The position numbers and the translations under genes are program-made. A stretch of 64,000 bases of DNA from a virus. Positions 6,463 through 11,965 of the stretch are shown here, in pieces. The stretch lies in the IMG/VR virus record IMGVR_UViG_3300028920_000037, positions 1 through 64,000 of that record, one strand, 5' to 3'. Position 1 is the stretch's first letter, and each line of letters starts with the position of its first letter. The notes beneath the pieces were generated by a model, which saw only the letters and a list, made by a program, of their open reading frames with translations, did no database searches and had not been told where the DNA came from.

Positions 6463-8355
6463 ATGTCCAAGTACTTTACTCTAGAGCAGCTTAGCGAAGG
6501 CGTCATGGAGAGGCACGTCGGTGCCGAACGCTCCCGCCTCGTTGAGAAGTGGAGCCGTACGGGTCTCCTGCGAGGCCTCGAAGGCAAGCGTCGTGAAAGC
6601 ATGGCGCAGCTCCTCGAGAACCAGGCTGTCCAGGTCCTCAAGGAAAGCAACGCACTGTCGACTGGTGGAGCAGGCCTGACGTCGTCCGGCCAGATCCAGG
6701 GCTTCAGCAACATCGCATTCCCGATCGTCCGCCGAGTGTTCGGTGGCCTTGTCGCGAACGAACTGGTTTCAATCCAGCCGATGTCACTGCCTTCGGGCCT
6801 GATCTTCTACATCGACTACACCTACGGGTCAAACGTCGGTGGAGACGCTGGCGTCGACCTTTCGTCATCCTCGACGAATGAGACCTACACTCGTGGCCAG
6901 TCACTGTACAACAACCCAGCAGGTAGGGGAGTCCAGAGTGGTTCTCTTGCGGCGGGTGGTATGTACGACCTCGTCGGCTCGGGTTACTCAAAGGTTCATA
7001 CTGGTTCGACAGCTGTGACAGTCGCCACGACGGCAATCGGTGCATGGACCGGCGCGAATGACACATTCGTTTCCGGAACAACTGTTGCTGCATCGACTGA
7101 CTTCACGGGCTCAAACGCCCAGTACGTCAGCTACGATGGCCAGATTGCAAAGGACCTCGACCTTGGCACTCTCGATCTCACCTACGTCCACCTCGCGGTC
7201 ACGGACCTCGCTTCGGCGATTCCGACGGGCAACGTCCTCGACGTTGACCAGATCGCAGTCACTGGCCTTTCTGTCCCGGGCGGCGCTCAGGCATGGGGAG
7301 AGGCATACCAGGCAGGAACAGGTGTCCTCAACCTGCGTCGTCACAACAAGCGTGGTAACTTCTCTGGTGGTGTTTGGACTCCAAACCCGCTGAACGGTAC
7401 GCACGTTCAGATGGCGCTTCGTCTGTCAAACGGTGGTGGAGCTCCTCAGGTCGGTACGGCAACGGTTTCGATGGCGGTTGCAGATACAGTCCAGACAGGA
7501 GACGCCGTCGGTGCTACGCTGACGATCCCGTCCTTCGAGTCTGACTTTGGCGCGACTCCTTCGCCTTCGATCCCGGACATCGACATCAAGATCGAGACGA
7601 TCTCGATCACTGCAACAACCCGCAAGCTTCGTGCTCGCTGGACGCCGGAACTCGCACAGGACCTCAACGCATACCACAGCACGGATGCAGAGGTTGAGCT
7701 CACCAGCATCCTGTCTGAGCAGGTTGCGCTCGAGATCGACCGTGAGATCCTCCACGAGCTCCTCACGCAGGCCAACGGTGCAAACCTCTACTGGAGCCGC
7801 GCGCCTGGCAAGTTCGTCGATAAGGAGACAGGCAAGCCGATCCGGCTCGCGAACTCGCTGTCCGTGGGTCCTGCATTCACGGGTACGGTTCAGGATTGGT
7901 ACCAGACGCTGGTTGAGACCATCGTCGATGTCGCCAACACGATTCACAGGAAGACCCTCCGCGGCGCAGCCAACTTTGTTGTGACTGGTCCGGACGTCTG
8001 CACGATCCTGGAATCCAGCGTCCTCTACAAGCCGAAGTACACGATCGATGGTGAAGGCCAGGTCGGCAACCCGATGACAATCGGTGCCGAGGCGATCGGT
8101 ACTGTGTCGAATCGCTTCACGGTCTACAAGGACCCGTACTTCCCGCGTAACCGCATCCTTGTCGGTTTCAAGGGTGGAAGCTACCTCGAAACGGGCTTCG
8201 TATACGCACCTTACGTGCCGCTCATCGTCACCCCGACGATCTACGCACCTGAGGACTTCACGCCTCGCAAGGGTGTGATGACCCGCTACGGCAAGAAGAT
8301 GGTCAGGAGCGATTATTATGGGACCGTTACGATTTTGGACATGAACATAATTTGA
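6463..8355 (+). CDS. Major capsid protein (T4 gp23-like)
   Basis: LVEKWS, AQLLENQ, SIQPMSLPSGLIF, RKLRARWTPELAQDLNAYH, YAPYVPL, PRKGVMTRYG. Confidence 0.96.
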   Translation: MSKYFTLEQLSEGVMERHVGAERSRLVEKWSRTGLLRGLEGKRRESMAQLLENQAVQVLKESNALSTGGAGLTSSGQIQGFSNIAFPIVRRVFGGLVANELVSIQPMSLPSGLIFYIDYTYGSNVGGDAGVDLSSSSTNETYTRGQSLYNNPAGRGVQSGSLAAGGMYDLVGSGYSKVHTGSTAVTVATTAIGAWTGANDTFVSGTTVAASTDFTGSNAQYVSYDGQIAKDLDLGTLDLTYVHLAVTDLASAIPTGNVLDVDQIAVTGLSVPGGAQAWGEAYQAGTGVLNLRRHNKRGNFSGGVWTPNPLNGTHVQMALRLSNGGGAPQVGTATVSMAVADTVQTGDAVGATLTIPSFESDFGATPSPSIPDIDIKIETISITATTRKLRARWTPELAQDLNAYHSTDAEVELTSILSEQVALEIDREILHELLTQANGANLYWSRAPGKFVDKETGKPIRLANSLSVGPAFTGTVQDWYQTLVETIVDVANTIHRKTLRGAANFVVTGPDVCTILESSVLYKPKYTIDGEGQVGNPMTIGAEAIGTVSNRFTVYKDPYFPRNRILVGFKGGSYLETGFVYAPYVPLIVTPTIYAPEDFTPRKGVMTRYGKKMVRSDYYGTVTILDMNII

Positions 8356-8459: not shown

Positions 8460-9395
8460 ATGCAAGAGGAAACACTTTGTCGCGAGTGTGGACAGGAATT
8501 CGATACATCTGAACAGGTTCGTCGTCACTTAAGAAAACACAAGATGTCCTATAAAGATTACGTGTTGAAGTGGAAGTACGATAACATCAAACCAATTTGC
8601 AAGTGTGGTTGCGGCCAAGAGACGCTTTGGAACATAGCGTTGAAGGATTTTGCTGTTCACGTCCAAGGACATCACGCGTGGGGTTGTAAGAAGTCCGACG
8701 AAGAAAAGCAAAAAATTGGTCGCAAGAACAGCGAAAACATGAAGCGTTATTATGCTGAACATCATGATGAAGCAATGCGAAAAGTTGCGTTAATGAACGC
8801 GGCACATACACCAGAAGTTGAAGCAAAACGTATCAAAGCAACCCGTCGAGCCTACGAGACTATGTCGTTCGAAGACAAGCAGAAGTTTTCAGACAACACA
8901 AAAAAGCTCTGGAGAGAGTCTCGAGAACTCATGGATGCGGCACGTGAAAAAGCTGCTATAACGTTCAAAGAACGTGCTGCAAACGGTGAATATGACCTTG
9001 AAAGTCGTAACAGAAAGATTTCAAAAGCGATAACTCAACTGTACATCGACGGTGGACAAGCATGGGGCACGGGTCACTATACGTCTACAAAAACAGGAAA
9101 GACGATTTATCATCGTTCGTCTTGGGAGCTTCAATATGCTCAGCTGTTGGATGAAGATCCTGATGTACTAACATGGGAGTTTGAATGGGAAGGCATCCCA
9201 TATGAAATTGATGGTGTAATTCATCATTACGTTCCTGATTTTCACGTTGTGATGAATGATAAGTCTCACCTCTTTGTTGAGGTCAAGCCCCAGGCGCTTG
9301 TTGAAACTGATGTAAATGCGGCAAAACGCAATGCAGCACTAAGGGTATGTGAACACCGAGGGTGGAAGTACGTTTCATGGGCTCCTGTTGTATAA
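8460..9395 (+). CDS. Free-standing endonuclease: C2H2 Zn finger + CKCGCG module + TnsA-N-like PD-(D/E)xK domain
   Basis: CRECG..HLRKH, CKCGCG, RSSWE, YVPDF..VEVK; AT-richer than neighbours. Confidence 0.75.
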   Translation: MQEETLCRECGQEFDTSEQVRRHLRKHKMSYKDYVLKWKYDNIKPICKCGCGQETLWNIALKDFAVHVQGHHAWGCKKSDEEKQKIGRKNSENMKRYYAEHHDEAMRKVALMNAAHTPEVEAKRIKATRRAYETMSFEDKQKFSDNTKKLWRESRELMDAAREKAAITFKERAANGEYDLESRNRKISKAITQLYIDGGQAWGTGHYTSTKTGKTIYHRSSWELQYAQLLDEDPDVLTWEFEWEGIPYEIDGVIHHYVPDFHVVMNDKSHLFVEVKPQALVETDVNAAKRNAALRVCEHRGWKYVSWAPVV

Positions 9396-11609: not shown

Positions 11610-11965
11610 GGGGCCGACTGGCTTCGACGTGGGAAGAGAAGGTAGGAACGATCACGTAGGGTTTCTGGGTACCCTTAACTGCTCAGGCGTAAACAACTGC
11701 GAACGATAACGCATTCGCTGACGTACCGCGAGCAATCGCTGCGTAAGCCGTCTCAGTGAATACGGCCTTTCGGTATCACTGAGGCGTCAATCCCAGAAAG
11801 GAAACCGGCGCGGTAAGGCTCATAATCCGCACGGTAAAATTTTGAGCTAGGATTGTTGCCTGCTGAATCGCAACAAACCCGCCGCAGGGTCAAGCGGCTA
11901 AGCGTGTGAACAAGGTTCTATTGGACTTTTTGCGGATTTGGGTTCGACTCCCAACGGTCCCGCCA
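11610..11965 (+). ncRNA. ssrA: tmRNA (one-piece, ~356 nt)
   Basis: 5' GGGGCCGACTGGCTTCGAC; PK1-like GGGT/ACCC + CTGGG/CTCAG; tag ORF; T-arm TTGGG-TTCGACT-CCCAA; acceptor 3' strand CGGTCCC-G-CCA. Confidence 0.95.
11699..11746 (+). other. tmRNA tag reading frame ANDNAFADVPRAIAA*
   Basis: Resume context AAACAACT|GCG AAC GAT AAC ... GCA ATC GCT GCG TAA. Confidence 0.9.

Follow-up and report, generated by a model that had tools for sequence, protein, structure and literature searches.

A phage tmRNA gene in the stretch of viral DNA analyzed here (64,000 nucleotides; the window) has G3:C70 in its acceptor stem in place of G3:U70, and a single wobble pair, G4:U69, one step away. The G3:U70 pair is the textbook case of an amino-acid identity determined by one base pair, and in tmRNA it is regarded as invariant. 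The same exchange was found in a phage tmRNA of another lineage, and relatives that carry both G:U pairs suggest how the shift came about. Judging from the sequences, this is a genuine and structurally intact phage tmRNA; we tentatively favor, with somewhat less than even confidence, the interpretation that host AlaRS would still charge it through G4:U69, probably with alanine.

ARAGORN called a one-piece tmRNA (Table 1) as the single RNA gene of both the 64-kb window and the whole 140,495-bp record, and Rfam model RF00023 matched it over the full model (positions 1-374) with 94.3 bits (E 1.9e-35; gathering score 47), which confirmed the original prediction of a tmRNA at this place. Direct reading of the sequence gave the same stem as had been proposed: all seven acceptor pairs form (G1-C72, G2-C71, G3-C70, G4:U69, C5-G68, C6-G67 and G7-C66), the sole wobble among them being G4:U69, and they are followed by G73 and an encoded CCA. 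The minimum-free-energy fold of the RNA contains the same acceptor stem and T-arm. At position 73, all 12 relatives in the family described below have A. The claim that the remainder of the molecule is intact, T-arm and tag frame included, was borne out by the consensus T-loop (TTCGACT), a complete tag and the extent of the Rfam match. Columns 11620-11628, aligned to the Rfam consensus, are invariant in the 13 tmRNAs of the family; all 13 tags start with ANDN, and they end before the stop with AA in 11 cases, including the window, and with VA in the other two. With its full-model Rfam match, its 7-bp acceptor stem, 5-bp T-arm and CCA, and its tag frame, the RNA can be classed by homology as a tmRNA gene, yet its sequence would not place it among the canonical alanyl-tmRNAs. 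A scan for promoters and terminators 5' of the gene gave nothing informative.

Table 1. Features of the tmRNA gene in the window (positions are those of the window).
Feature	Position	Strand	Description	Basis
One-piece tmRNA gene	11610..11965	+	356 nt	ARAGORN; Rfam RF00023
5' acceptor strand	11610..11616	+	GGGGCCG; G3 = 11612, G4 = 11613	sequence read
D-loop-like GG, then conserved UUCGAC of the tRNA-like domain	11620..11628	+		
Tag reading frame	11699..11746	+	GCG resume codon to TAA; encodes ANDNAFADVPRAIAA	ARAGORN
T-arm	11938..11954	+	5-bp stem TTGGG/CCCAA, loop TTCGACT	sequence read; Rfam alignment
3' acceptor strand	11955..11961	+	CGGTCCC; U69 = 11958, C70 = 11959	sequence read
Discriminator and encoded CCA	11962..11965	+	G73 = 11962, CCA = 11963-11965	

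Two other registers of the acceptor stem were rejected, one that starts at G2 with C72 as discriminator and a tRNA-His-like one with G-1:C73. In the window as in L019, the second shifted tmRNA, the canonical register has an encoded N73-CC(A) end; position +1 is fixed by the stack of 7 + 5 bp; and the acceptor stem of L019 differs from that of L076, a relative with both G:U pairs, solely by U70 to C.

The window belongs to an IMG/VR fragment of 140,495 bp, which CheckV estimates to be 39% complete. A T4-type Gp23 major capsid gene (6463-8355) precedes the tmRNA by 3.3 kb, and an endolysin of the M15 peptidase and peptidoglycan-binding type is found downstream. The capsid protein of the window is also known from a 331-kb contig and relatives reach 309-324 kb, indicating that the source is an uncultured jumbo phage. 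Among the INPHARED phages, blastn with the tmRNA gave zero matches and tblastn with the capsid protein did not find a close cultured relative; the best full-length capsid match had 34% identity (a Microcystis phage) and partial matches reached at most 52%. Directly 3' of the capsid gene, the gene at 8460-9395 (+) matches the N-terminal domain of TnsA-like endonucleases (PF08722) as well as the PHROG families 'head closure' and 'endonuclease'; the same gene follows the capsid gene in L499-L501, and its product may be a mobile endonuclease that has settled among the head genes. Pfam marks intein-splicing and HNH domains in the portal gene of a related phage (L499:1-930). ARAGORN found no tRNA gene in the 140-kb fragment. 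A relative (G005; 324 kb, 86% complete) has about 44 tRNAs, two of which are canonical tRNA-Ala. None of these 44 tRNAs has G4:U69, and one of them, a tRNA-Pro(CGG) (L495:17775-17846), combines C1:G72 and A2:U71 with G3:U70, which by textbook rules is the alanine mark in a non-Ala tRNA.

The family set comprised 13 phage tmRNAs, obtained from capsid-anchored loci and from whole-record searches; their occurrence is patchy, with 10 ARAGORN tmRNA calls in 80 capsid-anchored loci. Nine have the canonical G3:U70 with A73 (L067, L072, L077, L079, L083, L100, L110, L134 and L346), L079 and L346 having A4:U69 as well; two have both G3:U70 and G4:U69 (L076 and L347); and the window and L019 have G3:C70 with G4:U69. 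Position 70 is T in 11 of the 13 and C only in the latter two, and U69 is present in 4 of the 11 members that keep U70. The relatives with a canonical stem score 80-125 bits in Rfam, and the score of the window is in the middle of this range, so that its RNA is no more degenerate than theirs.

L019 is syntenic with the window over about 12 kb, with 40-83% protein identity, and has its tmRNA at the same place (83.1 bits in Rfam). The acceptor strands of this tmRNA, GGGGGCG/CGCTCCC, are followed by A73 and CC. L149, a partial contig from a metagenome, matches the 3' half of the L019 tmRNA with 91% identity (8.5% divergence) and keeps CGCTCCC-A-CC. In the tag, the codons for ANDN and for the terminal AA differ synonymously between the window and L019 (GCG/GCC, GAT/GAC, GCT/GCG and GCG/GCC), as fits a translated tag. 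RNAalifold did not reproduce the pseudoknotted tmRNA fold on the L019/L149 fragment; one plausible compensatory change between the two, C-G to U-A, was noted by eye and is not relied on.

The combination of G3:C70 and G4:U69 arose twice, as the capsid and tmRNA trees put the window and L019 in different lineages. In the capsid tree, the window groups with L065/L066, and L019 with L067/L073 in a separate, well-supported clade; in the tmRNA tree, the window groups with L346 (support 0.95), and L019 falls inside the L072/L134/L079 cluster. The first step was a change of A4 to G in the line of the window, whose sister L346 has GGGACCG/CGGTTCC, and of C69 to U in the line of L019, where L072 has GGGGGCG/CGCCTCC. 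These stems indicate that a Watson-Crick A4:U69 pair was probably replaced by a wobble G4:U69 in the line of the window, and that the change of U70 to C probably followed as the second step in both lines.

One of the two tmRNAs with both G:U pairs, L347:1501-1868 (-) (IMGVR_UViG_3300033075_000639, record G008), has a T-loop that reads GGCAGTA where TTCGANT is expected and scores only 51.9 bits in Rfam; it looks like a decaying copy. The tmRNA is absent from the syntenic place in the closest capsid relatives of the window, and a search with the flanking proteins, together with the capsid homologues (76-84% identity), yielded contigs that were too short or had no tmRNA at that place. In L499 and L501, whose capsid protein is 79% identical to that of the window, the stretch 3' of the capsid gene contains a tRNA-Phe (L499:11704-11777 and L501:5766-5839) and no tmRNA; relatives differ in the small RNAs carried at this location. 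Its absence from the closest capsid relatives and its broken T-loop in L347 show that phages of this group can do without the tmRNA.

The frequency of the shift was assessed by pattern scans. Among the matches listed, all 120 viral tmRNA-type 3' ends have T70, bases 69-70 being CT in 86, GT in 21, TT in 8 and AT in 5. Apart from the window's own record, two patterns with TCCC at positions 69-72 retrieved L019 as the sole tmRNA from 2.9 million viral contigs, and a control pattern, V-CCC (base 69 not T), retrieved zero tmRNAs with C70 from the same number of viral contigs, its matches being tRNAs, ssrA-like attachment-site fragments and a few uncharacterized stretches. Thus, every C70 tmRNA found in these viral scans has G4:U69. 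In a set of 185,579 bacterial and archaeal species, each represented by one genome, the shifted 3' strand had 33 matches, none of them a tmRNA by Rfam and one, in L064, a doubtful ARAGORN call of a permuted tmRNA; the idea, raised with the original prediction, that the variant might simply be common among host tmRNAs is therefore not borne out. As a control, the canonical pattern matched 198 of 401 sampled Pseudomonadota (49%), meaning that the scan detects roughly half of such tmRNAs, and the absence of the shift from the cellular tmRNAs detectable in this way suggests that bacterial AlaRS is generally intolerant of it. A scan of metagenomes for the shifted strand gave 79 matches, mostly tRNAs, of which only L149 and L207 were relevant. 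L207:1440-1777 (+) (metagenome contig Ga0075738_121) is a tmRNA of low GC content (37%) that scores 90 bits and ends with CGTTCCC-C-CAA; Rfam does not align its 5' tRNA-like domain, and the best visible 5' partner, GGGAATC, does not give G3:U70. Possibly, this tmRNA also does without the canonical alanine mark; alternatively, its 5' end may have been overlooked.

A recurring element that resembles the 3' half of a tRNA, …GGGCCCTCGATAAAAGGGTCCGG…CGGATGCGGGTTCGACTCCCGCCGGTCCCA, was seen in L014:1200-1290, L160:1640-1715, L168 and L182; its T-arm fits the consensus and its end reads CGGTCCC-A, and it received no tRNA or tmRNA call from ARAGORN or Rfam. Four Eremiobacterota genomes (L032, L040, L044 and L064) share a conserved stretch, …GGCTGGAATCCCCGGA…GGGTTCGACTCCCGGCCATCCCA, in which a tRNA-type T-arm seems to precede the 3' strand of an acceptor stem. 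ARAGORN called a permuted tmRNA there in L064 only, and Rfam found nothing; the L064 call was not counted, the proposed acceptor stem having no G:U and no Rfam support.

Identity for AlaRS rests on G3:U70, and charging through G4:U69 has been described as a eukaryotic gain of function, prokaryotic AlaRS being reported not to have it (PMC8583063, PMC7337962). The specificity of AlaRS does vary in nature, as indicated by this eukaryotic activity and by the AlaRS of Nanoarchaeum equitans, which charges minihelices independently of G:U (PMC11392972).

In the mechanism that we propose, a transition would have created G4:U69 beside G3:U70, as now found together in L076 and L347, and U70 would have changed to C later, becoming dispensable only as G4:U69 would still support enough aminoacylation in this host. 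The amino acid would most likely be alanine, added by host AlaRS with the help of host SmpB, and in infected cells the RNA would enter stalled ribosomes and append its degradation tag, ANDN...AA; G73, for its part, would be either tolerated in the window copy or a secondary adjustment. SmpB (PF01668) was not found in the 140-kb fragment, in G001 (a relative, 91% complete), in G002, in G003 or in the record of L019 (G004), so that the partner would have to be host SmpB. We favor continued charging because U70 was lost twice, each time beside G4:U69, with all other elements of trans-translation kept; the existence of the double-G:U forms and the persistence of the L019-type 3' strand in L149 are also in its favor. 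On the opposite side, prokaryotic AlaRS reportedly rejects G4:U69 (PMC8583063, PMC7337962), and the window has also lost A73, a second change in alanine identity. Furthermore, the shift occurs in no scanned cellular tmRNA, the gene is dispensable in the phage group, and the association of C70 with G4:U69 rests on two events. Tandem G:U pairs are destabilizing, and C70 might be fixed preferentially once selection on identity is relaxed; such relief would produce the same association without any function of G4:U69. The broader proposition, that bacterial AlaRS, possibly only when tmRNA is presented by SmpB, reads a G:U pair at 4:69 and that jumbo phages have relocated the determinant twice, is conceivable from the sequences, though we consider it more doubtful than probable.

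We considered the possibility that the tmRNA is a recently inactivated accessory gene, in which the change of U70 to C, accompanied in the window by that of A73 to G, destroyed alanine identity while G4:U69 was neutral. This simple loss of a dispensable gene was not among the options of the original prediction, and it is a serious rival, even if we judge it rather unlikely. It agrees with the patchy distribution of the tmRNA and its absence from the syntenic site in the closest capsid relatives, with the decay of L347, with a background in which U69 is common, and with the changes at two identity positions in the window, given that prokaryotic AlaRS is reported to refuse G4:U69 (PMC7337962). 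Yet both independent cases of C70 have G4:U69, the scans yielded no C70 tmRNA in which base 69 is other than U, and the line of the window exchanged a Watson-Crick pair for a wobble. Moreover, the tag frame is intact, as is every other functional element, the Rfam score is not below that of the canonical relatives, and the L019-type end has been kept across 8.5% divergence.

A second possibility is that the RNA was selected to be non-chargeable, and that it would bind host SmpB, and perhaps ribosomes, as an uncharged decoy that titrates the host rescue system during infection. According to Hudson et al. 2014 (PMC4131195), citing Mao 2009, a tmRNA fragment that consists of the tRNA-like domain only strongly inhibits tmRNA whether or not it can be charged, perhaps through titration of SmpB, and a fragment of this kind occurs naturally in mycobacteriophage DS6A. 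In DS6A and the engineered fragments there may thus be a precedent for phage RNAs that disturb trans-translation by titrating SmpB instead of carrying it out, and the window RNA has changed exactly at the two identity positions while preserving the tRNA-like domain that binds SmpB, with no phage smpB found. However, the DS6A fragment is devoid of the mRNA part, whereas the window RNA keeps a tag frame and pseudoknots, which a decoy does not need, and its ANDN and AA codons differ from those of L019 only synonymously. The presence of G4:U69 beside C70 in both lineages is also left unexplained, unless it reflects relief of a tandem G:U. We regard this explanation as unlikely.

A change of identity, by which the tmRNA would receive another amino acid from a synthetase that reads the acceptor end, or from an enzyme of the phage itself, with its gene in the unsequenced 60%, appears improbable. 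Trans-translation tolerates other charged amino acids, and a histidine-accepting E. coli tmRNA was reportedly engineered in vitro by Nameki et al. in 1999. The end available for reading is G73 with G1:C72, G2:C71 and G3:C70, and the combination of G73, G2:C71 and G3:C70 resembles the acceptor elements of some synthetases, e.g. E. coli GlnRS and SerRS; only 39% of the genome is in hand. Most candidate synthetases, however, additionally rely on features absent from tmRNA, an anticodon or a long variable arm, and L019 keeps A73, so that no new discriminator is common to the two shifted tmRNAs. The AlaRS core was not found in the 140-kb fragment, in G001, G002 or G003, in the record of L019 or in G005, and neither the class-II 2b core nor tRNA_SAD was found in the fragment, the record of L019, G005 (86%) or G001 (91%); a CCA-adding enzyme is present only in G001. 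The search for smpB and synthetase genes suggested along with the original prediction thus found none in the 140-kb fragment, and the option of a phage enzyme is unsupported, with about 60% of the phage missing from this fragment; it was one of four mechanisms that had been put forward without a preference, next to another amino acid, a relaxed host AlaRS and a decoy. Of the initial interpretation, there remains a phage tmRNA that has lost G3:U70 and A73 and is otherwise intact, and the recurrence of the shift together with the double-G:U relatives makes the observation stronger than it first was.

An artifact at 11958-11962 (an assembly or sequencing error hiding a CGGCTCCACCA-type end) is very improbable: although the contig is a metagenome assembly, three separate changes (G4, C70 and G73) would be needed in a helix that is still perfectly paired, which is atypical of assembly errors, the Logan assembly of SRR8554435 has an identical upstream neighbor protein and a gap, also of 745 nt, between the genes on either side of the tmRNA, and two contigs from other samples, L019 and L149, show the same 69/70 state and the same 3' strand, respectively.

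A natural translocation of the alanine G:U determinant by one step is said to exist in Drosophila mitochondrial tRNA-Ala, for which Lovato, Chihade and Schimmel reportedly described in 2001 a G2:U71 pair and a co-adapted AlaRS; this case differs in the direction of the shift (opposite, to 2:71), in concerning an organelle tRNA and in having a known cognate enzyme. With canonical SsrA (RF00023), the window RNA shares its one-piece organization, the 7-bp acceptor stem and 5-bp T-arm, the pseudoknots, the resume codon, an AA-ending tag and the stop. Where SsrA has G3:U70, a Watson-Crick pair at 4:69 and A73, the window RNA has G3:C70, G4:U69 and G73; it also differs by a much lower Rfam score (94 bits, against 151-198 bits for the five cellular tmRNAs measured) and in being phage-encoded, with smpB not found in the phage fragment. 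The eukaryotic tRNAs with G4:U69 (Sun et al. 2016, reviewed in PMC8583063 and PMC7337962) have the same wobble position acting as an alanine determinant; this is reported, however, as a eukaryote-specific mischarging side reaction on tRNAs of other identity, where G4:U69 is not the sole determinant of the RNA. In the window and L019, G4:U69 is found without G3:U70.

Like the tmRNAs of the Bxz1 group, Bacillus phage G, huge phages and Melnitz-like marine myophages, the present one represents an accessory gene for translation in a large phage. tmRNA has been found in about 2.3% of phage genomes (PMC9004378), including huge phages (PMC7162821), and phage tmRNAs have been listed by Hudson et al. 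(PMC4131195); a shifted G:U is not described for phage tmRNAs in these three papers. In the curated tmRNA database, calls with poor AlaRS-discrimination features were rejected (Hudson et al., PMC4131195), so that shifted variants would be missing from curated sets. Alanine-identity filters in database curation thus hide such variants.

Taken together, G3:U70 was lost twice in phage tmRNAs that look intact, each time with a G:U pair one step away, and the relatives with both pairs suggest the route. If the relocation proposed above is true, this would be the first translocated alanine identity element in a prokaryotic system and the first functional tmRNA without G3:U70. If these RNAs are charged, recognition by bacterial AlaRS would be more flexible than thought; if they are not chargeable, phages would deploy tmRNA mimics against the ribosome rescue of their hosts. 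Both outcomes bear on the takeover of translation by large phages.
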